Assembly: GCA_965178125.1 (NCBI GenBank)
Contig: OZ237735.1
Span: forward strand, 2,356,001-2,420,000
Direction of reading: 5' to 3'
Source of the DNA: Bilabrum cf. latius
Lineage: Eukaryota
DNA: 64,000 nucleotides
The position numbers and the translations under genes were made by a program. The notes beneath the pieces are model-generated. The model was given only the letters and a program-made list of their open reading frames with translations. It was not told where the DNA came from and did no database searches. Below are positions 1 to 64,000 of this stretch, piece after piece. The stretch's first letter is position 1. Every line of letters starts with the position of its first letter.

Positions 1-1848
1 GCTAGTGCTATAGGCTCTACGGGTGTCCCCCAGGCGCTGGACTCTCCTAGGCAGCAACCCAAGACGCCGAAGGCGAGAGGGCCGAAGGAGTCAAAGCAGG
101 CCACGCAGCCGGGATCATCCGGAGCGAAAAATCTTCAGCCCAGGCGATCCCCGAAGCAGCCCCCCCTGGACTCCGGGTCGCTGCCCTCGATGGCTGGCGG
201 GCCCGGCGCCAGCCCCCCTTCCTCCCGCCCGACAGGCAGCACCCACTCGAAGCAGGTGGCCCGCGGGGAAGCCCCCTCTCGGAGGTCGCCGCGCACTAGC
301 GGCAGCGGAACCACAGCGCGCGGCACCGACCAGAGCCCCGGTTTGGACTCCCCGCGGCAGCCCGGCAAGCCCCGCCGCGCTATCGGCTCCGGATCCAAGG
401 CGAGTCTGGCTGCCATGGCTGGACAAGCCCTCAGCGGCGAGGAGGCCGCACCGGCGGCAAAATCCGTGCTCAAGGCACCTGCACCAGCACCAGCACCTGC
501 ACCAGCACCAGCACCAGCACCTGCACCTGCACCTGCACCTGCACCTGCACCTGCACCTGCACCTGCACCTGCACCAGCAACAAGCATGTTTAGTCGCATG
601 TTTGGCTCATCGCCGGCCCCAGCCCCAGCCCCAGCCCCAGCCCCAGCCCCAGCCCCAGCCCCAGCCCCAGCCCCAGCTTCAGCTTCAGCTTCAGCTGCAC
701 GCCCAAGACCCAGACCCCAACCAAGGCCTCGCCCGGCGGCAAGCGCACGACCGCGGCCCCGACCCCGTCCCGGGCCAGCCGCAGGTCCTCGTCCCGGCCC
801 TGCCAGGCCTCGCCCAGGTGCGGGCGGGCCCAGACCAGGCAGGGCCGCGGCGAGGCCGAGACCATCCCCTGCGATGGGAGGCGCTGCCGGCGGTGCCCCC
901 GGTGGTCTGCTCGCCGAGATCCGTGGAGGTGCCAGGCTCAAGAAGGCCAAGACTGTGGTCAAGGGGAACAAGCTGCCCGGAGAAGGGGGTGCCTCGGGGG
1001 GAAGCAGCAGCGGGGGTGGTGGGGGGGGGCCGCCGGCGGGCGGCATGATGGCCCAGATCCTGGCCGCCCGCCAGAAGATGGCTGGTGGGGGCACCGGGTC
1101 GAGCAAGAGCAGCAAGCCCAAGCGCAAGTCCAAGGCAGGCTCTGGCGTTCTCGGAAGCAGCTCACACACCGGCAGCAGCAGTAGTAGCAGTATTAGCCGC
1201 GCTTCCAAGAAGTCCTCCGGCAAAGCCAGCAAGTCCAAAGGCACGGGCACAGGCAGGGGTTCCAAAGCGGGCGTGAGCGGGTCAAACCCCAAGAAGAGCC
1301 CCAAAAAAGGACCCAAAGCAGGCCCTAGGCAGCCCGTCTCCGTCGCATCGCTGGGAGCAGGTGCCCCCAGGCCGCAGCCCAGGCCAGCACCAGCACCGGC
1401 TGCGGCTGCTAGGGCACAGCCCCGTCCTTAGCCCCAGCCTAGGCCGCAAGCAAGGCCCCGGCCGCAGCCCAGACCCCAAGCAGGAGAGGGCCGCCCGGGG
1501 AGGCCGCGCCCAGGCAGGCCAGGGCCTGGAGCAGGGGCGGGTCCTGGCAGGCCAGGGCCAGGGAGGCCACGTCCGACGGGCGGTCCGTTCGGCGGTGGTG
1601 GGGGTGCCGGGGGTGCCCCCGGTGGTCTGCTCGCCGAGATCCGTGGAGGTGCCCGGCTTAAGAAGGCCAAGACCGTGGTCAAGGGGAACAAGCTGCCCGG
1701 GGCAGGGGGTGCTTCGGGGGGAAGCAGCAGCGGGGGTGGTGGGGGGGGGCCACCGGCGGGCGGCATGATGGCCCAGATCCTGGCCGCCCGCCAAAAGATG
1801 GCTGGTGGGGGCAAGAAGAAGAAGAAGAAAAAGAAAGGCGGCAAGTGA
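1..1848 (+). CDS. Proline-rich protein with two WH2 (actin-binding)-like motifs, copy 1, 5'-truncated by the window edge
   Basis: The frame of ORF 190..1431 continues through TAG 1429-1431 (QPRP*PQPRPQ) to TGA 1846-1848. It has two GGLLAEIRGGARLKKAKT motifs, (PA)n and (RP)n tracts and a poly-Lys tail. Paralog at 18556-21381. Confidence 0.7.
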
Positions 1849-2007
1849 ACGTTTGGGATCCCGTGTTGCGTTGCAGTGTGCATCTCGAGGCCTTGTTTGT
1901 ACTCATCACCGAGCCTCGCGCTGAGCAGCTGCAGTGGTCGCAACAGCCGAGCGTTGCTGTAAACAATTTGCTGCAGTGTGTAACACAGAAGCATTTCGTA
2001 ATTTTCC

Positions 2008-5000
2008 ATGAAGTGAGGTAACCAAAGGAACAAATAGGGTTCCGGCACCAGCGGCTAGCGTATCCATTCCGTTTAGTTTGGGTTCGTGTTCCTCTCTTTG
2101 CTCTGTTGCAGGGTTCTGTACCTGTACGGGTCCTAGACTGGCGCAGCGAAGAGTATAGCAGAGGTAAGATCATGCACAATTACTAATTCAGATGTACTAT
2201 CTACATAGTGGGTCCAGCAAAGCCCGGTACTGCGCAAGACAAGACGCACAACAGGGCAAGAAAGATCCTTGCACGTTTCCTTTGTCACAGGAGTTGCATG
2301 CGGAGTCGCTCCGACAGGAAATTGACGGTGTTTTAGACACACTCAATGCCGTAAAGGACGTGAGTTGATCCTGGAACGGGTGATACGAGACCGCACTGTT
2401 CGCACCTTGCTTGTGCACGTGCCACGTCGATCGGTTCATTTTGGCCCAAGCGTAACGCTACACCGCAGGCTGACCTGACCGAATACACCAGTGTGGTTAT
2501 TGTTTGTTCTACCACAGGAAATGGCGATCCTCCGGACAATGCGGACAGGTTTTACAGGAAACTGCGTCGTCGCCGCGATCCCGTGTCCATGGAGGGTGTT
2601 CGATTCGCAGTACTGGCCTTGGGGGACACAAACTATGACAAGTTCTGCCACTGCGGTAAAATCATCCACGCAAAGATGCTCGAGCGCGGCGGGACACCCT
2701 TCCATGAGCTCGGGTGTGCGGACGAGGCCATGGGACTAGAATCGGTGGTTGATCCGTGGACTGAGGGACTTTTCGAAGTTCTCAAGCAGATGAAATCCAG
2801 CAGTGACGCAGGTGCCAGCGAAAGCAAAGAGCCAGAGGCGAAGGAAGCTCCCGCGCCCAAACCAGGCCCCACAGCTGCGACTTCCAGCAATCCCATGGAT
2901 ATGCTGAAGCAGATGCAAGCGAAGCAAGGCCACAGCAACGCGTCCGAGCCTTCCCATAAGGCTGCTGCATCTAAACCTGCGGAAGCTACGAGCCCTGCCC
3001 CAGCACCCACTACAGCACCTGCCCCTGCCCCTGCCCCTGCCCCTGCCCCAGCACCCGCCCCGAAGCCCGCACCGGCCGCAGCCACTCTCGGGGGCGGAGG
3101 CATGTCTCTCCTCGCCCAGATGAGGGCCAGGGCCGCGGCAGCCTCTGCCGCGAGAGCCACGCCGGCGTCGAGTGGTGCGGGAAGCGGAGGCCCTGCAGGG
3201 AGCAGCAGCAGCAGCGGCAGCGGCAGCGGCGGCCAGCCGGCGCTCATCAAGCGGCAGTCAGCAGGGAAGGCCTCATAGGCGCAGGCGCCCGCCCCGCGGC
3301 AGTCGACTCACGCGCACGGTTCGCGCGCACCGCTGGCACCCGCGCCTGTCAGCAGTGGAACCAGGTCCTTCAAGTCCTTGTTCCCTGGAGTCGCTCGGCG
3401 CCTCAAGTCAGACCCGTCGGGCGGCGCGTCGGGCAAGCCAGCCGCTGTCGCTGCCGACCCCAGCAGGCCCGTGTCTGCTCTGCAGAGGCGCCGAGCAGCA
3501 CGCGCAGCAGCTGGTGGAGGATCATCTGCCCCCAAAGCACCGCGCCAGGCGCCACTCCTCGTGGAGGTGTCCGATACCCCCGGTGACGCGAACCCTGGAA
3601 AGCAGGCATCGGCGGAGGTTGACCCGGCCACGCCAATGGAGCAGGCCCGCGCGCTGGAGCCGTTGCCCGCACCATCAGGCCGCATAGCGCTCGCAGAGCA
3701 CCCGAGGAACGCCCTGTACGATGCCGCGGGTGGGATCGGCCTGTCTGCCGCCTCTCCCGCCAAGTGTCCCATCAGGTCTGCCAGGTACCTCACGAAAGGA
3801 GGGCCCAGAGCGCCGAGGAGGGTGATCCACCTCGAGCTGGACCTCCGTGGGACCACGCTGGAGGGAAGGTACGTGCCTGGGGATGCCATTGGCGTGCTGT
3901 GCAGGAGCGAGAAGTCCAATGTAGAGGCCCTCTGTAAGCGGCTCGGCTACGAGCCGTCGGCTCGGGTGCTGCTCCGCGGCGTGTTGGGCAGCGATGGTGA
4001 CAGCCGCCAGCCGCTTCCAGAGCACCTCAAGAGGGCTGGTCTGAGGCCGCGCGTCTCCGAGGTGCTGTCGCTGTGCGTAGACATCAACGCCCCGCCGAGA
4101 AAGCAGGTGCTTGCACTGCTGGCTGCACACACCAGCGTAGCCAGCCAGAAGGCCTCCCTGCAGGCCATGTGCGAGAACAGCAAGGCGGGCAAGCAGCTCT
4201 ACGAGTGCTTCGTGCACTCGCAGCAGCTCTCCCTGCTGGACGTCCTTGGCTTCTTCCCTTCTTCGCGACCCCCTTTGGCCGCTCTTCTCTCAGCACTGCC
4301 TCCGCTTGCCGCAAGGTTCTATTCCATCAGCAGCTCCCCGCTCGACAATCCCTCCGTCCTCAGCTTTGCCTTCACGGTTGTTGCGTACAGAACGGGGGCC
4401 AAGGCCGACCAAGTCGAGGCTGCGCGCGCAGCGGCAGGCGACGACAAGAAGGAGCCGGCATCGTCGCGTGCCAAGCAAGACGGCGTCGTCGCTTCGGTGG
4501 ACTGCATGCCTGGAATAGGCTCTGTGATCCGCCAGGGCGTGTGCACGGGGTACCTCGAGCGGCTGTGCAGGAAGCCCCTGCAGGCATCCATCGCTGCAGG
4601 GAGGAAAACGAGGCTGGCTGGTGCTGCAGGTGCCTCCATCGGCCTCGAGTGGGACAGCGAGCACGAGGAGGATGACTCTGGCAAGGAGGGCGGTCCCGAG
4701 AGCGACCGCAGCGAGGCGTCCCTCGGCGGTGTGAAGGTCAGTGAGGGGCTGCAGGACGGCGAGGCAGAGCAGGACGAGGACGAGGAGATGGAGGAGGAGG
4801 TGCCTCTGGGGCACGGGCCAGCTGCATTCTCGCTCGGTGCCAGCGCCAGCGGGGCAGCAGAGGGGCAGAAGAACCCGTGCCTCGCAGTGTTCTTGCGTCC
4901 AGCATCGGAGTTCCAGCCGCCTTCATCGCTGCTCCCGCCTTTGATTCTGATCGGGCCGGGGACAGGGGTGGCGCCGTTTCGGTCCTTTTTGCGCCACAGG

Positions 5001-6416
5001 GCAGCAAGGCGCAGGGATGCCGAGGAAGCCGCGGTGGCTGCATCGTCTGGCATGTGGCGCGGCGCCTTCGGTATCAGCGGACTCGCGGATCTCGAGGAAA
5101 GCAAAGAGGACATGCGCGAGCACGAGGCATCGGGCACGTCCGAGCTGGAGGAGAAACGTGGAGCAGCAGGGGTGTCATCCAAGGCTCGTCTGCAGGAAGT
5201 TGATGTGGGCAGATGGGGATCTGCTGTGACGGCTTCTCCGGCCAAGGTGCCGCCGTCCAAGCACGGGAAGGCAGCCGGCTCCACTGGCAGCGTGGGATCG
5301 TGGATGGCCAACGCTGCACAAAGGGCGATGCGGGCAGCACTGCAAGGGGAGCTCCCAGCTGCTGGATCGGGGGGAGCTTCGTCGCTCGGTGGAGCGACAT
5401 CTACCAACGGTGGTGCAGGCATGTTGCACGTCTCCATGCAGGGCATTCCCTCTACCAGGTCTGCCGAGCTGATTGCGGATGCAGTGCAGCTTCGAGGCGA
5501 CAAGGCATCGGTAGGGAGCGACGAGCTTGCCAAGGCCGAGGCAGCAGCGGTTGCCAGCGCGCGGATGGCTGCCGCTGCTGCTGCCGCCGTCCTCAACGTG
5601 ACTGGAAGCGTCTGCGACGGGCCGGCGGGTCCATCCGAGTCGCCCTCCGCCAGCGCTGATGCTCTCCTGGGCCTGGCTCGCCTCCGGTCTCGCCTGGCTC
5701 TGGGCACGTGTGCCAGCTTCCAGGCGCCCCCGAGGGAGATCGCGGCGGCGCATCGGCTGGTGCGCGCGCTGGATCGGGAGGAAGCCGCGGAGTGCGCCGA
5801 CTCGCGCAGCCCCATCGCTCGCACCAGGTCCTCTGGCCTGCTGGCGTCCAACCCCGAGCAGGTGCCGGCGATGGGCGGCAGGCCGGCCGTGCCGGCGGGT
5901 GACGTGCTGCTGCTGTTCGGCAACCGCAGAAGCAGCTACGACTTCCTGTATCGGCGCGACTGGGCCTCGCTGCTGCAAGGGGGCGACCTCACCGAGCTGC
6001 ACTGCGCCTTCAGTCGGGAGGGCCGCAGCGGCAAGCCGGCGCAGGACCGGAGGCACGACGACGATGACGATGGCATCCAGGGCGTGGTGGAGGGAGCCAG
6101 GACGTACGTGTGGAACCGCATGCTGGAGCCTCAGGTGGCCGACAGGCTCAGGCAGCTCATCGTGAAGGAGGGCGCCTACGTGTACGTGTGCGGTGATGGC
6201 GCGGCCATGGCGCGGGATGTGCACCAGGCCCTGACTGCGGTGCTGGCGGGCGGGGAGGCCGTGGTGGAGGCGGCGGTGCGGGCAGATGGCAGCGGGGGCC
6301 GGGCCTCCGACGTGCTGCAGGCGAGCGTGAAGGCCCTGCCGGGCATGGGCGAGTCCCAGCGCGCTTTGGTGAGCATGATGGAGCAGGGGAGGTATGTGCG
6401 GGACATCTGGTCCTGA
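2008..6416 (+). CDS. MTRR: Diflavin reductase, methionine synthase reductase-like, copy 1 (introns 2013-2111, 2164-2290, 2360-2468)
   Basis: Splicing gives MKVLYLYGS*TGAAKSIAE...VVIVCSTTGNGDPPDNA...LGDTNYDKFC...ADEAMGLESVVDPW (flavodoxin domain). Downstream motifs RFYSISSS, LIGPGTGVAPF, YVYVCGDG and GRYVRDIWS-TGA. In-frame TAG at 2134 and 3276. Confidence 0.85.
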
Positions 6417-6520
6417 GCGGTGTATTGACAAAGACAAAGATGCACAGCGGACGAGAGCCCACTTTGAGATAGACTTCGGAGACTCTGCCATTGATGGTGC
6501 ATCATCACATTTGCGGACGC

Positions 6521-7038
6521 AAGAAAGTTCCTGCCCCCGGTCCCATGGACCCACTGGGCTTCACCCCGAACGACTGGTTCTTCACCAGCCCACCTGAATG
6601 GATGCGATATTCATCTGACACTACGGATGTACACGCCACTTTCCCCATGCACCCGACTGGCCTCGTCGCCACATGGCTTCTTGGTCCTGTTCCCCGCCCT
6701 AGGGACCGTGTGCTTTGCTCCATGCATTGCCACCTTGGCCCTATCCTCTTGCAGCGTGCACGCGCCGGTTCTGGCCGGCCCATGGTGCGCCCCGTCTGTC
6801 CACCCACCTGTTGGCCCTCTGCGTGCTGCTGGCCGTGCAGCCCGCTGCCACTCGCGTCTCTCTCGTGCCTTGCACCTGGAGACCCCTACCTCCCGTTGCA
6901 TTCTTTCTGTTGACACCGCACTATCGTTGCCTGTGCCGGTATCCTCTTCTCCACCTCCTGTCCTCCTGCGCCCACCTCGTCTTCCGGCTCGCCTCTGCTG
7001 CCCGTCGCTTGAATCCTGATGTACAAGGAGACAACACA
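6521..7038 (-). mobile_element. Zinc-finger-associated dispersed repeat, copy E1
   Basis: Homologous to 17372-17890, 26254-26756, 44187-44764 and 44765-45277. It begins directly after the ZF1 stop with the 27-bp motif TGTGTTGTCTCCTTGTACATCAGGATT and ends GGGGGCAGGAACTTTCTT. Confidence 0.75.
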
Positions 7039-8448
7039 TTACTGGTGCTTGCGCTCGCCATGATGCACAGTGGACAGATGCCTCCTGAGTGAGCCTGCCC
7101 GCCCGAATGACTTGCCACAAACTCCGCACTCGTGCTTGCGCTCGCCATGATGCACAGTGGACAGGTGCCTCCTGAGTGAGCCTGCCTCCCCGAATGACTT
7201 GCCGCACACCATGCACTCGTGCTTGCGCTCGCCCAGATGCACAGTGGACAGATGCCTTCTGAGATGGCCTGCCACACCGAATGACTTGCCGCACACCATG
7301 CACTCGTGCTTGCGCTCGCCATGATGCCCAGTGGACATGTGCGTCCTGAGTGAGCCTGCCCGCCCGAATGACTTGCCGCACACCATGCACTCGTGCTTGC
7401 GCTCGCCCAGGTGCACAGTGGACAGATGCCTCCTGAGATCCCCTGCCTGCCCGAATGACTTGCCGCACACCATGCACTCGTGCTTGCGCTCGCCCAGATG
7501 CACAGTGGACAGGTGCGTCCTGAGATCCCCTGCCTGCCCGAATGACTTGCCGCACACCATGCACTCGTGCTTGCGCTCGCCCAGATGCACAGTGGACAGA
7601 TGCCTTCTGAGATGGCCTGCCACACCGAATGACTTGCCGCACACCATGCACTCGTGCTTGCGCTCGCCATGATGCCCAGTGGACATGTGCGTCCTGAGTG
7701 AGCCTGCCCGCCCGAATGACTTGCCGCACACACTGCACTCGTGCTTGCGCTCGCCCAGGTGCACAGTGGACATGTGCCTCCTGAGTGAGCCTGCCTCCCC
7801 GAATGACTTGCCGCACACCATGCACTCGTGCTTGCGCTCGCCCAGATGCACAGTGGACAGATGCCTTCTGAGATGGCCTGCCACACCGAATGACTTGCCG
7901 CACACCATGCACTCGTGCTTGCGCTCGCCATGATGCACAGTGGACACGTGCGTCCTGAGTGAGCCCGCATGCCCGAATGACTTGCCGCACACCATGCACC
8001 GATGTTCTGCCCCGATTCTGCCTGCCTGTCCCCGCCGTCTCTTCGCCCTCGATCCGCTCTGGCTGTCTGCTGACCTCGCCTCTGCCGGCCTGCCTCGCTT
8101 CTGGCCCAGAGAGGCATCCGTGCCGCCGCCTGCATCTACCCCTGAGCTTGACTGCATTGATGATTCTACTTCTTGCGGCAACATTGCGCTGCTGCTGGAG
8201 TGTCCCGACGCCACGATGCACGTGGGAACAGCTTCGGCTCGATCGCTGGCTGGATCTCGGGCCCTACCTTTCCCATCTGCGTTTCGCCTGCCCCACTAGC
8301 GACTGCTGGTCAATGATAGCGATGCAGCAATCGAGTTCATGTGACGGGCGGGAACCTCGACATCGCATCCACCAGCGTCGCTGTCGCTTGAGTCGCTGCT
8401 GACGAGATCGATCACCTCCCCTGAGCATGCACCTGCTGCTTGCTCCAT
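7039..8448 (-). CDS. Tandem C2H2 zinc-finger protein ZF1 (11 fingers, N-terminal SIM-like motif and NLS)
   Basis: ATG 8448 (MEQAAGACSGEVIDLVSSDSSDSD) reads through TAG 8296-8298 into ORF 7039..8214. 29-aa repeats HECxVCGKSFGxAGxLRxHxSTVHxGERK. Ends with TAA. Confidence 0.9.
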
Positions 8449-8821
8449 GGCTGCCTGGCAGTATCTATATCCAATACTGGATGCTGATGCGTAACCAGCC
8501 AGGTGGCTGCCGACCACAGAATGACAGGGAATACGAGCTTTCCTATTCACGACCTTTTCTGGTGTACCTGTTCGACGGCCAGTTCTGCTTTGCTCCAACG
8601 CAATCCTGAATCTAGAAAGGCTATACTTGGGGGATGCCACAGCCGAAACAGTAGCGAGGAAAATGACAAGGAGACGGTGAGATCGATCCTTGTTGGTCCG
8701 GTTCCGGCTGTTTTCATCTTCACAACTTCAAGGTGCTGGGCCTGGCGTGGCGGCCACGCTCACTTGGAACACCAGCTTCACAGGAAGCAAACAGGCCACG
8801 CGCAACCCACCACATCCCTCC

Positions 8822-11146
8822 TCACGGAGAAGCACCGTTCTCGCTCGCTGCCCCTCCTTCGCCAGACGCCTTCTCCACCCTCTCCCTGCGCGCCTGCTGC
8901 TGCTTCTGCTGCTGCGCCCCCGCCCGCTTCTCCCTCCACGCCTTGCCCTTGATCCGGGCCTCGTCGGACCGCTTCAGCTGGGCCGCCAGCGCGTCCACGG
9001 AGAAGGCCTCCTTGAAGTCCATCGCCATCGACGAGGAATCCACACCCCCGGAGCCCCTCGACGATCCGCCGCTGCCGCTGCCCCCCCCCTCCTTCTGCCC
9101 CCCCCCCTCCTCGGGGATGTCCTCTCCAGTCGCGATGGCCTGCATGGCAGACATCCACCCGCCCCCAGACCGCAGGTCACCGGACCACCACGCCAGGAAC
9201 TCCGCCTTGGAGATCATCCTGTCCCTGTTCTTGTCCATCTCCATGATGGCCGCCTCCAGCTCCGCGTGGCTCAGCTTGCTGCCCAGCTGCACGCACAGGT
9301 CGGCCAGCTCGGTCGTGTCCAGATCGCCGCTGCCGTCGAGGTCCGCGGCATCGAATGCCTCCGCGGCCTCTGCCTCTGTTGCCACGCTGGACTTTAGCTG
9401 GACAAAATGGTACATGGCGCAGCAGCTGGTGACCCAGTTGGCCACGGCGAGCACCATGAGACCGAGGCCGACGACGATGTTGAGGATCTGGGAGGCGCTC
9501 CACTGGGCCAGGCAGAGGGAGCCCACCAAGAACATGAGGTGACCTCGTCCACTGACCGTGGTGAAGATCGGCATGTATTTCTCCACCGCTCGACGTAGGA
9601 ACATGCCGCAAAACGCGGTTCTTGCCTCGGTGATGGCGATGAGGATCCCAAACCACATGATCCACCCGTTCAAAACCACAAACACGATCGTCCTGCCCTT
9701 TGTTTTCTTGGCGTCGGCGAAATTGATGAAAATTCCGATAAAGGCCGAGAGGATCGCGCAGACTCCGAACAGGAAGGAAAGCACCCGAATCCCGCAGGGG
9801 CCCTCTGCCACCCACCCGCCGAGTTCGCGCATCTGTCCCCACACCGCGGCGGAAACAGACGAGGTAGCGATCTCCATCTGAGCCTCTTCCATGGACTTCG
9901 GTTCCACCTCGCGGAGATCTTCGAGGTCTCGCACGGCCTTGGCGGCCATGGCTGCATCCCGGCGGGGGGGAGGGGTCGAGGCCACGAGTGGCTGGGTGGG
10001 GCTGTCAGCAGCAGCAGCAGCAGCAGCAGCCCCCGCGGCAGCTCCGCCGCCTGCTGCGCCGTAGGATCCAGATGCAGCGCCGCCGCCTTTCTTTTCCTTG
10101 AAGCTTCGGTGCGCGGTTCGAAGCTTGGCGGCCATTTGAAGCGCCGAAGCGAACTCGCCCGCGCCCGCACCCATGCCCATGCCCATGCCCATCGCGTCGG
10201 CTCCATCGGCTCCGGGGGCGCGCGGGGCCGAGGCTCCCTGCAGCGGGTTCTTGGTCGATGATCCCTTGGAGTCGCTGTATACCCCTACGGTGTCAGTGTC
10301 TGGGCCGCTGTCCCCGCCAGCGGCTGCGGCTCCTTTCGCTTCAAGCTGATCCTTCTTGGGCTTCGGTGGAGGCACCTGCCCCCCGTTCTCGATGATTTTC
10401 TCCTCCAAAATGCGCTGCCGCGTCGCCTTAACTGCTGGGGGGAGGAGACTGAAGGCGAGTTTAGCCTTCTGCTCCGGCGAGATGCCGTCGATCATCTCGA
10501 GGACGAGGCGAGCATGCCGCCGGATCTTGGCGGGCAGCCTCGACAAAACTCGCTGCTTGTTGGCTCGTGGGATGGTGTCGTAGATTTCGGCTGCCCCGCG
10601 AATATCCAGCTCAAGAGCACACATGATAAGCTGTTCGACCGAATCTGCGGACAAATCGATGTCGTCGTTCACCTCGAAGGCAAGACGCACGAGGGGTGGC
10701 AGGCGTCTCTTGACGTCCCAGCGGAGGTCTTCCGGCATGCTGTGGTACAGCCGGTAGACGTGCACCGCAGCTTCGATTGGATCATTCTATTTAAAGGCGT
10801 CCTCAACATGCCGAATCGCACTCGAGCTGATTATCGGCTCTCCCTTGGGGCCTCGAGCACTGAGTACCTTTCGTACAAGATCTTGATCCAGGTGTTGAAG
10901 CCCACCCAATGCCTCCTTTGCGTCATCCGGTAGATCTCCCAAGTCTTTGAGGAGACCCGACGCTACCAATTGCACAACGTCAGCCATCCCTTCTGCTGAC
11001 GCCTCCCGGTGCACCGTAGGAGGAGACTCTTCATCAGACGAGTCCTGCTCGTACACAGCAGAATCAAGGCGTTTTGCCGGCTTTGTTCCGCCATATTTCT
11101 CGCTATTCGATTCGCGCCTCTTGATTGGCTGGGGTCCGAGCTACAT
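8822..11146 (-). CDS. Membrane protein with a COPI-associated/TVP15-like multi-TM region followed by an EF-hand pair
   Basis: ORFs 10787..11056 and 8822..10765 are joined in frame by TAG. Hydrophobic helices with a KYMPIFTTVSGRGHLMFLVGSL motif, EF-hand loops DLDGSGDLDTTE and DKNRDRMISKAE. Start 11146 is inferred. Confidence 0.7.
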
Positions 11147-11256
11147 GCCCGATCCAAGACAGATATAGAAGTGGCACCACGAGCCGCGCCGCCGCCGGGG
11201 TCCAAAGCCCCGAGTGCAGTGCACTCGTCGTCTTCACATCCACTTTCGGGCAATCA

Positions 11257-13293: not shown

Positions 13294-13341
13294 GTAGATC
13301 CCATTAGTGAAATCGAGCAAAGCTGGTATGTTCAATCTCCC

Positions 13342-16029: not shown

Positions 16030-16492
16030 CGTGTGTTTCTGCGTGAATGGTGCAGCGTGAGCGAACAGTATGGCGTGTCTCAAGAACGCGCGAACAGCAA
16101 CACCAGCGCTTCCAGAATGAATGAGTGCCAATTTTAGACTTGGATTAGCCATACCGCTGTCGCAGTCCAACATCGAGGATGAAAATGTGCACGCAAATAG
16201 ATACCAAATGCCCCAACTAATTATTCTGGTATTATTCCAACTCACCAACTTTGGCCAATTATTTTGCAGGGAGTGCACCAGGTGTAACTTGTAGTAATGG
16301 TGTGTCAAACGAACGAACGATCTTAATTTTCATAAAATTGCCACCTCGCGGGAACGAACGGAACCATCGGCGCCGCCGCGCGTTCATTTGCGGAACCAAC
16401 CCACCACGACATGAGCTGCAGGGACCCAGCAGGGTTGCCAGTCAATCCTTTAGGTACCAAGCAACGTTGAATACCAGCACTGACGTACAGCT

Positions 16493-53242: not shown

Positions 53243-53361
53243 TAGCTGAGAATTGAGCAGTTTGAGGAAGAAAAAGGATCCTCTTGGCGGGGCGCTTGGA
53301 ACCCGGAACCGGAAAAGGGTCGCAAGTGCAACTGCAGATCTTCTTCACAACAAAACGACGT

Positions 53362-55482
53362 TTAATTCGGCAACACGCTAAAGGCTGCATTCGAGCACTA
53401 CTGTGCAGTGGATCCCTGCATCACGCCGCTCCAAGCCGCCCGAATCGCCCGCAAGGCAGCCAGCCTAGAGCAGCTCGCACCAACTTGCCTCGCATGGGGA
53501 CTGGCTGCTGTGGCGGTGCTACCGACCGTTTCCAATGTAGGTGCCTCCTGCTGGTCAGTCCTAATACCTACAGCTACGCCCGTCTCCTCCACGGCCGCAC
53601 GCTCGTCTCGCCCCGTCTCCTCCACGGCCGCACGCTCGTCTCGCCCCGTCTCCTCCACGGCCGCACGCTCGTCTCGCCCCGTCTCCTCCACGGCCGCACG
53701 CTCGTCTCGCCCCGTCTCCTCCACGGCCGCACGCTCGTCTCGCCCCGTCTCCTCCACGGCCGCACGCTCGTCTCTCCGAGAGTTAGTGGAGACTTCACCC
53801 CCATCTCCAGCTGTCTCGGCGGCACCTTCATCCTGATTGCTTGCAATGTGCTTAGCTGTAGGGTAGGACGGTCCAGCCCCCAACGCGGTCTCGATATCCG
53901 CCGGGAGCTCCTCCAGCACGGTGTGGCAGTGGCGCATGATGTCCTCGGCAAAGGACTGCAGGCAACAACTCACGAAGGTCACGGCTGCTGCACGCCGCCC
54001 CATCCGACCGGAGCGCCCTACGCGGTGCATGTACTTGTCCGTATCAACAGGCTGGTCGTAGTTAATGACGAGTGTGACGTGGTCCACGTCAATGCCCCGC
54101 CCCAGCAGGTCAGTTGATACCAGCAGCCGGGTGGTGCCGTCGCGGAATTCTTTCATCCTTGCCTGCCGCTCGGCCATCTTCATATCGCCGTGTGTGCTCG
54201 ACACCGGGCAGTCAATCGCACGCATTGCGCGTGATACCGCTTCCACTGCAGCAATTGTGTTGCAGAATATAATGGCCTTGTAAATGGGGACCCGCTCGTA
54301 GATCTCAGCTAGCGTTGCCAGCTTATCATCGTTGCTTTGCATCTCGACGACGTACTGCTTGACACCTTCCAGTGTTAGGTCCTTGGCCTTCTCCGCTATC
54401 CACAAGCAGTCCTCTTTCACGCCATGCTGGGCACGAGCGATGGCACGATCGTCCATCGTTGCACTGAACATGCATGCTTGAGTCGACGGCGGCAAGCGCC
54501 CCAAGAGCGTGTCCCTCATGGCAAAATACTGATCGGTTAGGAACAGCGTGTCCATCTCGTCCAGAACCAGTATCTGCAGCTCCGACAAGTCCAAGCCCAG
54601 GCTCGCCTGCATATGTTGTATGCGACCCACCGTGCCGACAACCACGTCAATGCCGGCATGGATCGCCCTGACATCCTCCTGCACCGGCAAGCCACCCACG
54701 CAGATGCGGACCCGGACGCCCATCCTGTGGCCTATGGACTGCAAGTCTTGTCCGATCTAGGTCGCAAGCTCCCGCACTGGAGCAAGGACCAAGGCTTGCG
54801 GCGCCCCGTGCGTTCTGCTCCGGCTAGTATCGATACGTTGCAGCAGTCCGATGCAGAATGCAGTCGTCTTGCCAGTGCCAGATGATGCTTGTGCGACCAC
54901 ATCGCGACCACGCCCCATGGGTGCAATGACCTTGCACTAAATGGGAGTGGGCACTGTCAATCCGTAGTCGAACACGCCCCGGAGAAGGTCTTCTCGCAGT
55001 CCCATGTCCGCAAATCGCTCGGTATACCCCGAGTCCTCAGGCTGCTCGTCGTCTTCGTTGTCGTCTTTGTCTTCATCTTCCTCTTCATCTTCCGAATCGT
55101 CAGGGCGGTCCGGACGGGGCTGCGGCTCCTAGTGAGGGCTATCGCCCCTATCACTGAAATCACGCTGCTGGCCGTCCTTGCCACTACCACATTTCGCCTT
55201 CAAGATGTCCTCGGCCTTGCTGCCTCCGCCTTTTGCGCAAGAAGCAGCTGCCCCACTGGCGGCAGCTGCTCCTGCATCCTAACTGCTTGGCACGTCGTGC
55301 TGGCGATCGCACGGGCCACTGGAGGCCGCACACGCGCAGTCATTTGTGCCTTCTGGACTACTTTGTGGTCTGTCTGACGAATCCCAACCACACGCGTCGT
55401 CGAATACGTCGGTCCAACCATCCAACGAGCCGTCGTACTCTGCTGCAGTTGGCGACAAAGAATTAGTCAGAAAATGCATCAT
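53362..55482 (-). CDS. DEAD-box RNA helicase, divergent eIF4A-like
   Basis: Q motif PTPI* (54937), SGTGKT, PVRELAT*I (54757), DEMD, SAT, RGID and HRVGRSGR. Acidic N-terminus. Reads through TAG 53398 to TAA 53362. Confidence 0.85.
53578..53773. repeat. 33-bp coding tandem repeat x6 ([11 protein letters not shown])
   Basis: GCCCGTCTCCTCCACGGCCGCACGCTCGTCTC(G) units in the helicase C-terminus. Confidence 0.9.
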
Positions 55483-55537
55483 GAAGCCTATAAGGAACGG
55501 GATGTATTAATTGTAGCGCTAGGTCGAGTTTGCACTA

Positions 55538-55577
55538 CCCGCATGAGCCCGCATGAGCCCGCATGAGCCCGCATGAG
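55538..55577. repeat. 10-bp tandem repeat (CCCGCATGAG)x4 upstream of the helicase
   Basis: Directly visible in the sequence. Confidence 0.9.
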
Positions 55578-56091
55578 CTGCTGGACGAATTGCCAGCGAG
55601 CCGAGAACAGGCATTCCGTAGCTGCGAGCTTCCTGGCCAACATCTAATCTAGCGCGCCAAACAAAACCCCGAATGCGATTCTCTCACGTTCTCTATCCGA
55701 AATTTGGTTTGAACAAGTTGCACCAGCCCCAGAACATGGTTGCGAGGTACCATCACTTTCTGGCTCCCCATTGCCACCAGAGCATGCCGGCTAGGCCTAC
55801 CTCTAGCAGACACCGGTGCCTCCTGAGATGCACGGCTACTCCTCCTCACTGCTGTGCCCTTCAACACGCCTCTCCTCCTCTATCGACTCCTGCGTATTTG
55901 CTGCAATTACATTCGCGGACCCCTTCATTTCTAAGGAGTGATAAACCTGCAGCTCCGGCCACGAGCAGAACCTCGGAGAACCTTCGCAGCCTTCGCCGGA
56001 AAATCGATTCTCGGTGGTGGACAAATACAATGAAACTCTCCATTCAAGCGCCAAACATGGTTCGATGCTTCAAATCCGGCACCGATGTTTC

Positions 56092-58270
56092 TCAGTCGAC
56101 CTCATCTGCCTCAGGCACGAACAGCATCCCACCAGGCTTCTCCTAGTCTTCGCCGCTGCTGTCGCCGTCATCATCAGTGGCAAGCCCAGCGACATCACGC
56201 CCGCCGGTCCTGTCGCGAGCAAAGTCGCTCCTATCAACCCTTCCTGGCTCGCCCCCTAGCCCTCCTTTCTGCTGCTGCCACCACGGCCCTGCATCGCCAC
56301 CGTCGCCGGCGGGCAGCATCGGCCCGCCAATCTTCAGGAACTCGAGCACCGTCTCCGCCTCCGCCGCTGCCTTCTCCTGCTGGGCCAGCCTGAGCAAACC
56401 CTCGTGATCCCGAGGCCCGCTGCCCTCTCTGCGGAACCAGGACCGCGCGGCGGTGGCACGGTCCCACCGGATGCCGTACTTCTGGTCTGGCGCCGGTAAT
56501 TTGTTCCCGCGACTGCTGCTCGGGTCCGGCTGGCTCCGTTCGAGCGTACCGGTAGACGACCTGCCAGCGGCTGCCTTTGCCAGAGCAGCCTCAAGCAGAT
56601 CAGAGTCGTCTGCTGGCACATCAGACGGCACCGGAGCTTCCCCTTTTTCCTATTCACCGTGCTGGGTAGTGTCACCGTCACCTAGCACACCAACAAAGGA
56701 CGGCTTCGCATCCCTAGCCCCAGTCGACAACAGCCCGGTCTTCCACTAGGATGACGCTAGTCCCAAGAGACAGTACATTGTGTGGTAGTAATCCCTTCTC
56801 ATGCTAGGCTTGTCTCTGAGACCGCCATCGGGCTGCTGGCAGCAGCGGAGCAAGTACCGTTGCAGGTCTCCGCGCTGAAGCAAGTGCTCGATGCTCCCCG
56901 TAGGCTCACCACTCGACGGAGCGCTAGCGCGCTATACGAGAGTATGTTTGTCGCTGCTTACGGCAGAGATGGTGGGGTATTTGCAGGAGTCGGCCGCATC
57001 GCAAAATGTCCGAGGTAGCGAGCCGTCATCCAATCGCACACCCTATCGAGCCCCATGGCTGCGTTGGGACTCTTGAACATCGGCTGTGAATCCTAAAGAC
57101 GATGCAACTGGTGCAGCTACCGGGTCTCCGTGCTCAGAGCAAGAAGCAGCTGCTCGCCTCGCCCGAAGCCTCCGAGCAAGTGCGCCGGAAACCCCGGCAC
57201 CTGCTCGGCGCATGGCAGCGACGGCCGTGCGGACCGGCGCCTCTTCAGAGACACCGAATGCTCCTCCCTACCAAAAGGAGTAGCAGCCGTCCACAAGCTT
57301 GTGCGAGCGCCCCTGAAACCCGCCCTCCGCTAGCATCTGCTTGGTCGCAAGCCACCGAGCATGCGCTCGAGCGTCGATGCGGGGGTCGTTCCAAGCGTTC
57401 AAAATTTTCAATGCAGCAACGGCGCAGAAATTGTAACCGCCGTGCGGCTCGCAGCCCGGTTCTCCGGCAAAGCCACCCTCGTGAGACTAGCACGAGGCGA
57501 TAAATTCAACGGCCCCGGCTGCGAGCTGCTCAGTGAGCATCCCGGTCAGATCAGCTATGCAAACCGCAATGTATACAGCACGAACATCCACTTCTCTGCG
57601 GTTGCAGGTGCGTCAAAAGCTCCCAAAATAGTGTGCATTGGCAAGGCAAGACGGCAGCTTTCAATGCAACCAATAAGTACGGTGCTCACCCGTCCGCGTG
57701 CATTGCAAAGCCTCCACAGGTCGATTTCAACGAGAGAAGATAGCGATACAGTAGCCCGCGGCGAATGGATTTGTAGCTGTCTTCAGTTCCGAGCGAGCAA
57801 ATCGCCAGCGTGCTGGCGTACGTTGGTGCTAGGTGCGCGAGCTGATCTGGCCCGCCACAAAAACCTCCTTGTGTGCTCTAGCACCGCTGCCCAAGGAAAT
57901 CAATCAGATATCGCCTCGTTTCAGGCGGAACGGCATGGCCAAGGAGATCAGTGCTGTTAAATATCCAGTAGGCCAACCACGGCCGGCTTGAATCCAACCG
58001 GCTAAATTGCTGCGGTAGCCTATGCATGCCTCGAAAGAGGTAAGCAAGGTGCTTGGAGCGTATCAACTTTGGTTTGGCCACGTCACGCTCCTCAAAAAGA
58101 CCATTATACCCATGAGCAGGCTTGCTGCCTAAGAATGTACCGCACTCCTTCTCTGTTCCCGCCTGCTTCACTGAGGTCTACGTGGGACAATTCTCGTTCA
58201 GATCAACCTTTCCATAGAACGATCTAGGGAGTCCGAGCACGTTCATTGCAATGTCAACGGCTGCATCCAT
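56092..58270 (-). CDS. FNTB: Protein farnesyltransferase beta subunit (one intron near 57600-57690)
   Basis: LDSSRPWLAYW, C*STQGGFCGGPDQLAHLAPTYA, EVDVRAVY, C*SHEGGFAGEPGCEPHGGYNFC, GRSHKLVDGCYSFW*GG and GGLRDKPSMRRDYYHTMYCL. TGA at 56092. Confidence 0.88.
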
Positions 58271-58963
58271 CTTGCAAGGCAATAATGTGTGGGCCACGGT
58301 CCGTGGCCCACGGATAGAGATTCCGAATCCGGATCTGTCTTCACCGCCAAATGGTCGGCGCCGCGCCCAGTGAATGGCGACGGGACCGATTTAAGTGCAC
58401 GCAACTATTTCGGGGTTCTGGCCAAATCTGGAACCGCCCATTATCTCGAGTATTACTCGTTCAACGTGAAAGTTAATCACATTAAATGATTTCATATGAT
58501 ACTATTGTGTGGTATTGGCTGTGGATAATTATGTTAGACATCGTGATGCGCACCTGTGATACCATGAAGGGTCGGTACCCCCTGTTGCTTGGGGGCGGCT
58601 AGAGACGTACACAGAAAGGGTTTTTGATCAAAACGCCTAGAATCGCACCCAAATCCAAGTAACCATCGACTGTGAGATTATCTGGAAAATGTTTTTGGTT
58701 AGCGTCGTGCCAGGCCTTGCCAAAGGCAATATCGCACTGCCCTGCCAGGGACATACATCCCCTGATTACAGGGCCCATAGGAGTCACTGCGCAAAATTGA
58801 GCCCGCAAATGTGTATTTGGATTTCATTTACATCCATTGTACCGGTATGCGTTAAATTGATTTCGTGCCGAACCGCCGGAACCGCACCAGGTCCACGAAG
58901 TCGTGTGCCTAGCGCGGCTGGGCTTCGTTCGAGCCGAACCAAAACGCCCCCTTCGAGCGCATG

Positions 58964-60292
58964 TCAGCCCGTAGAACCCCGTGACGGCTGAAGACGAAAC
59001 CTCGAGACTACCCTCCCAGACCGCGTTGTCGCCGTTGCTATCTGCAATCCCTGCTCCTGTGCCTGCTCGGCTGCGTCCTGCGCTTCCTGGTCCACCAGCT
59101 CGTCGTCCTGTTCCTTCAGCTCGTCCTCCTGGCCCGCCAGCTCGTCTTCCCCGTCGCTACTGTAGTGTTCAACCACGTTCTTGTCCATGTCTGACCGCCA
59201 TCGCTTGCTTTTACGCCTTGCCGTGATGCTCGAGACCGCGCTTGACTCGCCTGCTCCTGCCCCTCCCTTCGCTGCTTCTTCAAGTTCTGCAAACTGCCTT
59301 TTGCTCCCGCTCCCGCCCTTGCCCTCGATCAAGGCCTTACCTGCGCCCCCGCCCTTGCTCCTGACCTTGCCCCCGCCCTGGCTCTTGCCCCTTCTCGCAC
59401 CCTTCTAACCCCGCGCCTTCTTGCCAGCGACGAGATGCAGAAACGGCTCCAGGGACAGCTCTGATCCAGCGCTCTCTATGGCAGCCTCCAGCGAGTCTCC
59501 TCCTGCCCTCGCTCCCCAGCCAGACCGGAACAGCCGCGAGGCCAGGTCCAGGATGCTCTCCCGCTTCTCTGTGTCCTCGACCAGCTTGAACGCGTCTCGG
59601 GCAGCACTCTCGAGCTCTGGCACCCCACGAACGAATCGGCTCTCCCTGTTGGCCAGGATCCACAGCACGGCGTGCCAAGGCTGCACCAACGACCCCACCG
59701 AGCAGGCCTGCGCAACCCTGGATCGAGCGACCTTCGCCGCTGGTTGGGCGAGGCTATCCGCCGGAGGCATATCGCTGCCATTGCTCGGCCCAGGCGCTGC
59801 GCCGCCAGCCGCCTCACCTTGCATTCTGTCTCGCCACGGGCGCAGCAAGAGCCCCTCCGGTCGCCCCGGCTCCCCTGCCACCCTGCCCAGCGGCCCTAGC
59901 CCCAGAGCCGCCCGGGCGGTGCCAGAGCTCAGCAGCTGATTCCAGGCCAGCTGCGCCTCGCGCACCTCCTCGGTAGCGGGGGCGCCGCTTGCCAGGCTGT
60001 CGTGGGCCGAGCGCACGCAAGCCCCCACCAAGTTGATCATGGCACGAGACACGGCTAGCCGCATCATGTCGGGCGAGGGTGCAGTCAGGACCGACATTCC
60101 CCTCCGCTGCACGCACAGCTGCCCGAGACCCACAAAGCAAGCCGCTTCCAGGAGGTCGTCTGTGGTAGCGCCTCCCACCGCGGCGTTGTCCCAATCTCCA
60201 CCGCGGAGAAACTTCGCAACGTGCTCACTCGCATCCTCGTCCTTGGCCAAATGCGACGGAATGCCAGCGCGGACAATGGACGCGTTGAGCAT
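58964..60292 (-). CDS. Hypothetical protein with a basic/acidic C-terminal tail (5' end uncertain)
   Basis: ORFs 59405..60292 and 58964..59332 are joined in frame through TAG 59405. Ends with TGA. No recognisable domain. Confidence 0.5.
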
Positions 60293-61309
60293 TCCGACGA
60301 GCGTGATGTCTCTCGCCTGAATTCAAGGCCCGCCCTGCTGTCAATACATCTGTTTTCGCCGCCTGGGAGATCCTACTGAGAAGCTTTAAGGCCACTCAAG
60401 GCATCTTCGGTCGCCTGAGCCTGCGATAATTGCGATTAAGGTACCTCAAACAATATATATTCACTATATATACACATCTAAGCCGTCAAATGCACCAAGT
60501 TATGGCTATATTGGGTCAGAGAGGTGCATTTGCTCTTGCGCAAGCCCCATCTTTGAAGCCAATTTTCACAAAACTATCATCTCCGATTCTACTCAAACTC
60601 GCTCAAATAGTAGAACATCGCATGAAAATCGATATGCAGGCCCGGCAAAATGAACTCGGCGCAGGTAAGACCTGCAGGTCGGTAGCAGTACGGCACCCGA
60701 ACCGCTCACAAAGCACGAAAGTGCTGAGGATTCACCCTAAGCGGCACAAAATCGTCCGTCTGGAACATATCTCCAATACGTGTAAACATAGCAACATATG
60801 TATCTGCATAGGAAGCCTTGATGAGGCTCAGTCGCCAAGATAGCCAGGAGCCGCTGCACACCAAGGACGGTCCCCAACACAGGTACGCGTATGCATTCCA
60901 ATTTGAAACAAACGAGATCAAGCACACGACCAAATACTTCTTAAGAATGTTTTACACAAAATGTCAATGATAGTATTTGAGATTTTGCCTCAATCTCGAG
61001 AAAATCGCGATTGAGTGCCAGGCGAGCAGCGCCTCACCTTGTCGGACGGGCCAGTAGAGCTATTTGCGGGATGCATGACCTCGAATCCAGCGCACCAATC
61101 GAATAAAGTAATCAATTCAATCGTATTGGCAGACTCTCGAAAGAATTCATTCAGCGGGAGCCGAGAAAAGTGGCTGCAAAGAATCCGGAACCCTCTCCCG
61201 TCGCCATTCACTGGGCGCGGCGCCGACCAAAACTGCCTTGCCTTGTGTCACCTTTCTGTGTCTGGTTGCTTCAGGCTGCTACACAATCATTAACATGTAT
61301 ACTCAACAA

Positions 61310-64000
61310 TCAATCACCGGCTGCCTTGCAGGCCTTCTCTAGCCGGTGAAACCCATGCATCTCTGCCAGCTCCAGCAAGAAGCCCGCGTTCTCGTCATCC
61401 ACTGCCTCGACCACAGCCTCCTCCACGTCGTCGCACAGCCTGGCCAGCATGAGCTGCTTCGCCACGACGAGGGTCTCAAGGGCAGTGTCTCCCGAGTCGC
61501 CGATGGCCGCATCCGAGTCTCCATCGTAGATCCACCGCACCACCCTGCGTACTGCCTCCTGGGACACCTCAGGCAGCGACACGCTGCGCACTTCTCCCGC
61601 GGCACTGGGTGCTGCCATTCCCCCCACCAGGGCCGCCTTGAAGAAATCGAACCGGGAAAGTATGCCCGTGTGGCATCCAATGCCATCTCGCGCTCCAGCC
61701 ATCAAGGTCTTCCCAACCTCACCGGCACTATCACCACCGGCCGCTGCAGCACTATCTCCTGCACCTGGCGAGTCTTCGGGCAAAGAGTCTCCGCTGCCCT
61801 TGACAAGAGCCAGTGCACTGGCGGCCTGCCCTGGGAGCAGAGCACCAGCTCCAATGTCCTCATCATCCTCGCCTTCACCCACGTGTGATCCTCCAGTCGT
61901 CCTCCCCGAAGCAGCCGCAACAGCTCGCTCCGCGCGGCAGAGCAGGTTGCGCATATCTGCGCGGAACCTGGAAGCAGAGTGGCCATCTGCGTCATCGTTG
62001 CCAATCGCAGCTTCGGAACTACTGGCCGCCTTGGTGCCAACAGGCTCGCTGATCTTGCCCGCACAGATCGCGTGCAGTCTCGACAGGCCCAGCCTCTGAG
62101 CCAGTGCGCCCAGCTCCCCTCTTGTATTCCCACGCACTCGCACGGTGTCCATGTACAGGTACGTGACGAGCGCACCGAGAGTTCGATCATTTGCACCGGG
62201 CAGCACAATCTCCAACTCGACTTGGGAACCCTCTGGGGCGCCACCAGCTCTAGACGCAGCAGCTGGCGCGGTACCATCAGCGGCTGCTGCATCCGACAGC
62301 CTGGCACACACGACACAAGGTGGCAACTGCGTCTACCCTTTTCCTGCTGCCATCTCCCTGTGCTTCATTCCGCCCCTCCGAGTTCGCCTCGTTGGCTTTG
62401 GCTTCTTCTACGTTGATACCGTTGCGTCCGCATCAGCGGCAGCCGGTGCCGATGCCAGCTTCGCCGCGGCGGCTCTCTGCTTCTTCTTCATTCGCTTCTG
62501 TCGCATTTTCTTGGCGGCTTCGCGCAACTCGCTGGCGGCATCGAGCGACAGCCCGCCCACTGCTGCTGCAGGCTTGCTGCCAGGCCCATTGCCACCAGCA
62601 CCCGCAGCGTCTTCGCCGCTGTCGCTGCTCGCCGCTGCATCGCCGGATGCCTGGCCTGGTTTCCACCTCAATCCGCCCCTTGCATGCAGAAAGGTACGTG
62701 CAGCTGCCTGTGCCAGCTCCTCATCCACCTCTGGCACCCGCACAGACACACGGGCTTTGCCATCTGGTGACAGTACCGCAGCTCTCGCAGCTCGTGACGC
62801 TGCGTCGGCCAGCAACGGGCAGCGTGCCAGCAGAATCTCGCCGTGCACAAGCAGAGGACCGCCCGATGGGACGCACGCCTGCGCTTTGAGCCCTTCGGCG
62901 GAGTCTTCCACCGAATCTGCGGAGGCCCTCGATGCGTTGGGTAGCACGAGCCACCCAACCGGCTCGGCAGGCGCGAGGCCGCGTGCCAGCTGCGCGTCGA
63001 TGCCGCCGCTCTGGTACGATGTGCCGGTGGCACCCGGTTTGCTGGATGATTCACTGCCGTGCTGACCGCCTACATCCGTTACGTGACCACGAGCGGCCTC
63101 CATGGCAGAGCGGCGGTCCCCTCCTGCTCGCGAGGCCGTCGCCTCCGCTCGAGCCCTGGCAGCGTGCGCTGCCGACTTGCTCCTTGACGACCCTAGCCTC
63201 GATTCTAACCGCTGAGCTGCGCGCTAGAATTTTCCGCGGCTGACCCACGTGTATGAGTCCGGGTCTCTGTTGCTCCGCCTGCCGACGATGGAGTCGGCGT
63301 GTCCGGATATCATGTCCTGAAGCTCCTGGCGCATGCGACGCTCGCGCTGTTCCGCAGACCTCCTGGCTCGCTCCAGGGCGCCCGATCTTGCTCCACCATC
63401 GTGCGTGGCTGTGGTATCTGCTGCATGTCGCTGTGCAGCAGCCAGTGCATCGCTAAGCATCTCGGGAGACAGAGCGATTGCCACCGAGGACGAAAGCCCT
63501 CCACCCTCTTCACCGTGGGCCACGCCGGACCCAGACCCGCTGGCGGCCCCATGCCCGTCGCTTGACAGCGCACCAATCGTCAGCTGCTCCAGCAATTTTT
63601 TGGTAATCTTCACCTAACCAGCCCTCTTGGCAGGCCACAGGGACACTCCGGCCATGGACAGGAGCTCGGGGTCTCGCAGGAGAGGTGCCATCGACAGGCC
63701 GTGCCTGTCTCCAAGCGAGGGGCACGCGCACAGCATGTGCGAATCGCCGGCTCCGAACGCAACAACCCGGTGGAACGGCAGCGGCGCAGCCACCGGGGAG
63801 AAAGCGATCTGCGCAGACACCGTGCCCCTGCCCAGCACTCCCCAGCCCTGCCAGCCGAAGGTAACTAGCCTACCTTCGCGCGTGAGTGCCGCGCCCATCA
63901 GACCGCCCGCTTTCACTGCCGCAACTAGGCGATCCTGGCCTGCCATGGAGCCTCGCAGGGGCAAAGAGGCGCCTCCCGTCGCGTGCCAGTCCCCGCGCGG
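61310..64000 (-). CDS. RCC1-repeat and BTB/POZ domain protein, 5'-truncated by the window edge
   Basis: One frame through TAGs at 63614, 63224, 62408 and ~62333. RCC1-like TREGRLVTFGWQGWGVLGRG and GAGDSHM; BTB-like HGEILLARCP, LVTYLYMD, HTGILSRFDFF and VVRWIYDG. TGA stop. Confidence 0.75.

Follow-up and report, generated by a model that had tools for sequence, protein, structure and literature searches.

What does the codon UAG mean in the nuclear genes of the organism deposited as Bilabrum cf. latius? The question is raised by 64,000 nucleotides of its assembly (GCA_965178125.1, contig OZ237735.1, positions 2,356,001 to 2,420,000 of the forward strand; hereafter the window, within which all coordinates are counted), where coding sequences are crossed again and again by in-frame TAG. 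An earlier note on this DNA had proposed that UAG is glutamine (Gln) here and that UAA and UGA are stops, and the present analysis supports it: very probably, cytoplasmic translation in this organism reads UAG as glutamine, and genes end at UAA and UGA. Two parts of this statement are matters of observation, namely that UAG is a working glutamine codon in the spliced messages of essential genes, and that TAA is not a glutamine codon in the window.

The DNA of the window is nuclear and comes from a eukaryote that is GC-rich, gene-dense and intron-poor. The guanine-plus-cytosine (GC) content of the stretch is about 0.55–0.66 (about 0.62 overall), and coding regions have a GC content at third codon positions (GC3) of about 0.6–0.74. 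Once TAA and TGA are taken as the sole stops, 17 long frames appear on the two strands, most of them with a clear eukaryotic identity. Measured from stop to stop in this way they amount to 17,900 codons, among which there are 89 TAG and not one TAA or TGA; off frame, the same stretches of DNA hold 234 TAG, 99 TAA and 603 TGA. TAG is thus about as frequent in frame as out of it, and TAA and TGA are excluded. TAGs occur in all 17 frames and make up 89 of the 706 Gln-type codons, beside 478 CAG and 139 CAA.

Taking TAG as sense lengthens the longest frame (31427–43927) from 1,726 to 4,166 amino acids and reveals a kinase frame of 1,944 amino acids at 47510–53344. A codon check found every TAG coordinate cited in the earlier note to be correct and in frame, including 2134 and the four with contexts IRVML-TAG-FLREN (11434), VPTPI-TAG-CKVIA (54937), RELAT-TAG-IGQDL (54757) and STRTC-TAG-SNGGW (33242). 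The count of at least 14 TAGs, with no TAA or TGA, in the cadherin gene between 32200 and 43600 was likewise confirmed (14 there and 15 over the whole frame).

The residue read at TAG can be seen in alignments with homologs, for which all searches were run with TAG translated as X to avoid bias. We pooled three alignments, with 120 homologs in each, for the eIF4A-like helicase and for protein farnesyltransferase beta (FTase beta), and called a column conserved if at least 90% of it was one residue. The query occupies 279 such columns, 22 of which are Gln columns. Eleven TAGs fall in these alignments, six of them in conserved columns, and all six columns are glutamine (chance P ~2.4e-7).

Two of the six lie in the eIF4A-family DEAD-box helicase gene (53362–55930, reverse strand; Pfam DEAD and Helicase_C; intron 55443–55687; TAA stop at 53362–53364), which has in-frame TAGs at 55279, 55129, 54937 (Q motif), 54757 (RELATQ) and 53398. 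At 54937 and at 54757 all 120 homologs have glutamine, and in the alignment with eIF4A-III from PDB (E 8.6e-86) glutamine stands opposite both of these core TAGs. The FTase beta gene (56092–58270, reverse strand; Pfam Prenyltrans and PDB FTase beta; intron 57596–57689; TGA stop) carries TAGs at 58178, 57878, 57487, 57268, 57043, 56932, 56746, 56650 and 56143; among 120 homologs, glutamine is found in 119 at 57487, 114 at 57268, 119 at 56746 and 113 at 57878, and the other five TAGs lie in insertions or in one variable column.

The third gene that can be judged in this way is SMU1 (LisH plus WD40; 11125–13293, forward strand; TGA stop; E 6.5e-105 against human SMU1 in PDB), where the TAG at 11434–11436 in the LisH motif corresponds to glutamine in the human protein and in four of the four homologs fetched (P0121, P0123, P0124 and L001). 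P0121, from another assembly and 94% identical, reads MLQFLREN at the place of the TAG. Every conserved column that could be tested in the helicase, FTase beta and SMU1 is therefore glutamine, as the earlier note had claimed, and alignment of TAG mainly to some other residue was looked for and is not what the columns show.

Two positions to which that note had also appealed hold up in part. The TAG at 2134, in exon 1 of a diflavin reductase gene (YLYGS-TAG-TGAAK, giving YGS-TAG-TG), is present and recurs in the paralog at 21667; its glutamine column would be that of the flavodoxin motif YGSQTG (GSQTG), the Flavodoxin_1 match in Pfam covering profile positions 41–143 and a PDB search with the 29-residue exon, at E up to 10, giving no match. 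Equally real is the TAG of the sushi module at 33242, but it does not serve as evidence from a conserved glutamine, a second sushi-like module reading RTCTNFGFW with threonine there.

Paralogs and relatives exchange TAG with ordinary glutamine codons. A segmental duplication of 6.6 kb (1–6593 versus 19516–26120, 98.1% identical, differing at 129 aligned columns when mismatches and gaps are both counted) carries a WH2 gene and a diflavin reductase gene, and the CAG at 136 in its first copy answers to a TAG at 19651 in the second, just as the earlier note had it. The same is true of its zinc-finger example, VS-TAG-P in the array gene ZF4 against VSQQ in ZF3: the TAG in STVS-TAG-P of ZF4 aligns with a CAG-coded glutamine of ZF2 and ZF3.

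A more distant comparison is offered by L001, a metagenome contig of 8.6 kb with a GC content of 0.61, whose SMU1 is 69–73% identical to that of the window and which also encodes orthologs of the window's EF-hand gene (57% identical) and WH2 gene. Its SMU1 reads LMQFLREN, with glutamine opposite the TAG at 11434, and in turn carries a TAG where the window has a CAA-coded glutamine (ALQVD); the WH2 pair is of too low complexity to inform on TAG. Because L001, with its protein identity of about 70%, takes part in this exchange, the trait is common to a clade and not confined to a single strain. Prokaryote genome contigs, scanned with the SMU1 alignment, yielded no relative.

Are these TAGs still present in the messages? 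Seven public sequencing runs match the stretch, and four were compared: X1, a DNA run, and X5, X6 and X7, which come from two studies. The argument is drawn from intron-less joints only, and from contigs, which drop rare variants, in place of raw reads. The contigs of X5, X6 and X7 omit 55443–55687, 57596–57689 and 60420–61036 (the last joint being present in all three runs), each bounded by GT..AG on the strand of its gene; those of X1 run through five of the six intron boundaries, and no listed X1 piece spans 61036/61037.

Seven TAGs lie on joint-bearing contigs without a single differing letter, four of them in the helicase (55279, 55129, 54937 and 54757, on the spliced record 11 of X5) and three in FTase beta (57487, 57878 and 58178, on the spliced record 17 of X6 and record 25 of X7). 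Over 47500–64000, 32 of the 40 in-frame TAGs fall within listed pieces of X5–X7, again with no differences; these include 17 of the 23 in the kinase frame and all four in the RCC1/BTB gene, which are covered by pieces of X5, X6 and X7. TAGs were checked for editing or splicing and are kept in the intron-less contigs, and no splice joint coincides with one, so that both processes can be ruled out for the TAGs in question, as far as contigs allow.

It has still to be asked where genes end. Since the frames are by construction bounded by TAA and TGA, a recount was made within spans whose limits come from Pfam or PDB matches alone. These 9,284 codons contain 32 TAG, no TAA and no TGA; internal TAA was looked for here and not found. 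The 17 frames close with TGA in 12 cases and with TAA in five, the latter being, as stated in the earlier note, ZF1, ZF3, ZF4, the GTPase-like frame and the helicase. In ZF1 the TAA stands directly past the last finger (ERKHQ-TAA), GC3 falls 3' of the TAA in ZF3, ZF4 and the helicase, a distance of 48 bases separates the TAA of the GTPase-like frame from the stop of the convergent SMU1 gene, and ZF4 has a TGA nine codons past its TAA. For TGA, the diflavin reductase ends directly past ...RDIWS, presumably the usual C-terminus of that family. Codes that are ambiguous, such as those of Condylostoma, karyorelicts and Blastocrithidia, have several or all three stop codons in frame as sense, whereas here TAG is the only one found in frame.

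The alternative that survives best is a UAG of dual meaning, mostly glutamine and in some contexts a terminator, as in some ciliates and Blastocrithidia; we consider it improbable. In its favor, two frames have a TAG shortly ahead of the closing stop (53398 and 56143, 12 and 17 codons before it), and the frames themselves are defined by TAA and TGA. However, with TAG making up 0.5% of codons, chance alone would put one among the final 20 codons in about 1.7 of 17 frames, against the two seen. The SMU1 of L001 has a further TAG just past the conserved ...RLW, exactly where the database protein P0122 ends, yet the tail beyond it is like that of the window in length and make-up. There is no special base 3' of TAG either: base frequencies directly past in-frame TAG are A.18, C.29, G.38 and T.15, similar to the.21,.35,.36 and.09 found past CAG, which indicates no read-through context.

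The ordinary code in which UAA and UAG (UAR) both mean glutamine (NCBI table 6 type), with UAA merely rare in a GC-rich genome, is very unlikely. It is true that TAA is the rarest stop triplet of the window, the two strands having 161 and 158 TAA and 389 and 440 TAG, and that the sample is only 64 kb. With CAA and CAG at 50 and 216 in the homology-bounded spans, however, this code would predict about 7.4 TAA in 9,284 codons where none is found (P ~6e-4, a value which presumes that TAA:TAG tracks CAA:CAG and takes in two reductase copies that are not independent). The contrast between no TAA in frame and 99 off frame points the same way, as do the closure of five frames by TAA, in ZF4 with that TGA following, and the fact that CAA, at 139 to 478 CAG, is not rare.

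A standard code in which TAG is removed or bypassed (U-to-C editing, splicing, programmed read-through, dead genes or assembly errors) has nothing to recommend it except that TAG does occur in frame, and it is next to impossible in view of the seven unchanged TAGs beside splice joints on intron-less contigs from two studies, the spread of the 89 over all 17 frames and into invariant catalytic-core positions, the agreement between the window and those listed pieces of the DNA run X1 that cover these genes, and the CAG-like base context. That UAG encodes some other residue, for instance glutamate (Glu) as in some ciliates, is suggested by the paralogous zinc-finger linkers, where TAG is opposite a GAG found in 37 of 42, and by one paralog swap with AAG, but it is hardly credible beside six glutamine columns out of six, with 120 of 120 in the DEAD-box Q motif, when the five linker TAGs go back to a single variant that spread and glutamine for glutamate is conservative in a linker.

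Reading UAG as glutamine and UAA as a stop does have points that weigh against it, and they should be kept in view. On the side of termination, the evidence for UAA is thin, with five TAA-closed frames of which three are paralogs, and frames that end at TAA or TGA by definition leave room for termination at UAG. On the side of the transcripts, the kinds of the runs are not on record; X5 is marked 'probably DNA' and X6 and X7 'RNA?', labels that were not used as evidence.

On the side of the residue, the TAGs of the kinase domain are in variable or inserted positions of the PDB alignments, those of the cadherin frame in variable repeat columns (three TAGs, with only seven partial repeats aligned), and others in variable or gapped columns of the WH2 and FTase tails. 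One TAG aligns to glycine in the L001 ortholog of the EF-hand gene, and that at 25032 in reductase copy B faces AAG (lysine) at 5502 in copy A. The zinc-finger linker HLG-E-RKHEC has TAG in five of 42 units and GAG in 37; all five share a linked change, GGG TAG against GGC GAG, which marks them as one variant unit that has spread and that counts as a single change from glutamate to glutamine. The places where TAG aligns to lysine, glycine or assorted residues are all poorly conserved.

By what means might UAG be read as glutamine and UAA not? By analogy with known codes (PMC5304391, PMC11687900), a dedicated tRNA-Gln(CUA), one base change away from tRNA-Gln(CUG), would decode UAG and leave UAA alone, and eRF1 would have lost or weakened its recognition of UAG and kept that of UAA and UGA. 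Both steps are carried over from those codes, eRF1 not being encoded in the window. ARAGORN found no tRNA genes in the window or in the L001 contig, and Rfam at gathering scores gave no matches within the 64 kb.

The code of the window is an already-known assignment in a further organism. The earlier note had stated that uncoupled UAG reassignment is known from few eukaryotes, e.g., Iotanema; this is correct and at the same time incomplete, three ciliates having to be added. UAG is reported as glutamine, with UAA kept as a stop, in Protocruzia tuzeti, Hartmannula sinica and Trochilia petrani (McGowan et al. 2024, PMC11687900), an arrangement that arose independently several times in these ciliates (PMC11687900; Chen et al. 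2023, PMC10089648). The fornicate Iotanema spirale reads UAG as glutamine and stops at UAA and UGA (Panek et al. 2017, PMC5304391), and of its 119 complete genes 104 end with UAA and 15 with UGA (PMC5304391).

Iotanema and the window have in common the inferred assignment (former NCBI table 15), UAG at hyperconserved glutamines, and a predicted mechanism of tRNA-Gln(CUA) with altered eRF1, the changes in Iotanema being in motifs that read the stop codon, such as GTS. They differ in that Iotanema is UAA-dominant, as far as its reported genes go, whereas the window has 12 TGA to five TAA at a GC content of about 0.62. Hartmannula sinica, Trochilia petrani and Protocruzia tuzeti share with the window, in the same accounts, the reassignment of UAG alone to glutamine with UAA as a stop. 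Unlike these ciliates, the window has at least 17 genes on one stretch of 64 kb, and the DNA run X1 includes a 212-kb contig; the GC content of the window is 0.62, GT..AG introns are 94–617 bases long, and TGA is commoner than UAA as a stop. Phyllopharyngeans have gene-sized chromosomes, and most ciliates are AT-rich.

Uncoupled meanings of UAG and UAA occur elsewhere with other residues. The same literature describes changes of UAG alone to leucine in the rhizarian exLh and in TARA phyllopharyngeans and to serine in Scotinosphaera, and UAA as lysine with UAG as glutamate in the ciliate PL0344 (PMC11687900, PMC5304391). All of these resemble the window in the uncoupling, and the window differs in its residue, glutamine in place of leucine, serine or glutamate. 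Table 6 codes, in which UAR is glutamine, are described there for many ciliates, ulvophytes, hexamitin diplomonads, Streblomastix and Amoeboaphelidium (PMC11687900, PMC5304391); they share UAG as glutamine with the window, which has no sense UAA and closes five frames with it. In a full-text search of the literature outside subscription journals and supplements, no GC-rich organism other than a ciliate turned up with UAG as glutamine, Iotanema excepted.

To what lineage does the organism belong, and did its code arise independently? The best matches of the helicase are taxonomically mixed and at most 49% identical, those of FTase beta are mixed as well, and SMU1 matches outside the clade are at 35–37% identity. 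A quick tree of FTase was built from 73 rows, namely the query and 72 of its 120 matches (48 of the 65 animal rows being dropped). It places the query in a group of 16 rows with the two ochrophytes (SH-aLRT, the Shimodaira–Hasegawa-like approximate likelihood-ratio test, 99) and unnamed sequences; the branch of the query is long (1.59), and only 45% of its columns are filled. This placement gives no more than a hint of stramenopile affinity.

There were no metamonads among the best 120 FTase matches, so that the tree offers no comparison with them, and no ciliate affinity was seen in the similarity matches or the FTase tree, which falls short of a formal exclusion. The organism is probably neither a ciliate nor Iotanema, and an independent origin of its code is plausible. 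The fuller proposition, that the code arose independently and clade-wide in a deep, poorly sampled lineage outside ciliates and metamonads, possibly as the first stramenopile-like nuclear code change and not by the route in which a rare codon is captured, we put forward as a tentative possibility, somewhat more doubtful than not. The capture route has been proposed for AT-rich ciliates and for Iotanema. In a GC-rich genome with UGA as its main stop, UAG need not have been a rare stop, and the change would not fit that route.

Codes in which UAG and UAA differ in meaning are few, and they bear on how the two codons are coupled through tRNA wobble and a single eRF1 that reads three stops. The present case adds an organism that does not look like a ciliate and that comes with long genomic contigs, public transcript assemblies and at least one diverged relative that shares its trait, resources which would allow the responsible tRNA and eRF1 changes to be read directly and the reassignment to be dated on a tree. 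The earlier UAG-only cases were UAA-dominant; a GC-rich, UGA-dominant genome is a different setting in which to ask how a stop codon gets freed. There is also a practical side, in that standard-code gene callers will truncate the proteins of this organism; P0122, ending exactly at the TAG of the relative, is one example, and a second is seen in the protein collection, whose listed matches do not include the helicase and FTase of the window.

Turning to the remaining gene content, introns are few and GT..AG-bounded, with lengths of 94, 245 and 617 bases seen. The window opens on the forward strand with copy A of the proline-rich, WH2-motif gene (1–1848), the 5' end of which is cut by the window, and copy A of the diflavin (flavodoxin, FAD, NAD) reductase gene (2080–6416; Pfam Flavodoxin_1, FAD_binding_1 and NAD_binding_1). 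Copy B of the WH2 gene (18466–21381, forward strand; Pfam WH2) has seven in-frame TAGs, and copy B of the reductase, at 21600–25943 on the same strand, has TAGs at 21667 and 25032.

Between the two copies, the reverse strand encodes an EF-hand/COPI_assoc membrane protein (8822–11233; Pfam; two TAGs; TGA stop) and the frame of a P-loop (GxxxxGKS) GTPase-like protein with a coiled-coil tail (13342–16329; TAA stop), for which no Pfam family was found at E <=0.001. One of the four TAGs of the latter sits within QMQQM-TAG-QMQQM, and its long tail (in the frame 13345–16329) is rich in glutamine, methionine and glycine. When 1849–8613 of L001 is set beside 8822–21381 of the window, the EF-hand, SMU1 and WH2 genes are seen to have stayed neighbors, with the EF-hand gene inverted in L001 and the GTPase-like and ZF2 genes not found between L001's three.

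There are four paralogous C2H2 zinc-finger array genes: ZF1 (7039–8727, reverse strand), the shortened ZF2 (16484–17665, forward strand; Pfam; five TAGs), ZF3 (26757–29120, reverse strand; Pfam zf-C2H2; two linker TAGs, HLG-TAG-RKHEC) and ZF4 (45401–47431, reverse strand; Pfam). They are built of near-identical units of 29 residues, 42 of which were counted, and the GGG TAG linker occurs in five units from three genes, which suggests exchange between the arrays. The ZF2 frame continues into sequence equal to the 3' flank of ZF1, that is, the DNA past its TAA.

The intron-less frame of 4,166 codons at 31427–43927 (forward strand; TGA stop) combines sushi-like, cadherin and IPT/TIG domains (Pfam Cadherin 4.5e-55, TIG 1.3e-34) with a multi-pass membrane region, to which a 3-keto-disaccharide-hydrolase-like domain and DUF7630 are to be added; as one unbroken frame of 12.5 kb, its architecture is unusual. 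The frame at 47510–53344 (reverse strand; Pfam PK_Tyr_Ser-Thr; TGA stop) encodes a tyrosine-kinase-like (TKL-like) protein with the kinase domain C-terminal and has 23 in-frame TAGs. The helicase frame carries, past the helicase core, six tandem copies of an 11-residue unit at 53500–53750.

The reverse strand also holds a gene without a Pfam family (58964–61205; one TAG), in which the 617-base intron at 60420–61036 lies ahead of the coding frame, and an RCC1-like/BTB gene (61310–64000; Pfam; four TAGs; TGA stop) cut by the window at its 5' end. In several bins of 57969–61274 the word depth of the X1 contigs rises from about 15–20 to about 65–115, with many variant letters, which suggests multi-copy sequence in intergenic or intron DNA. 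Inside the kinase frame, X5 and X7 have contigs that follow the window as far as 51837 and again from 51936, with more than 250 letters of unlike sequence on the inner side, and the breaks may reflect an alternative form of about 100 bases.

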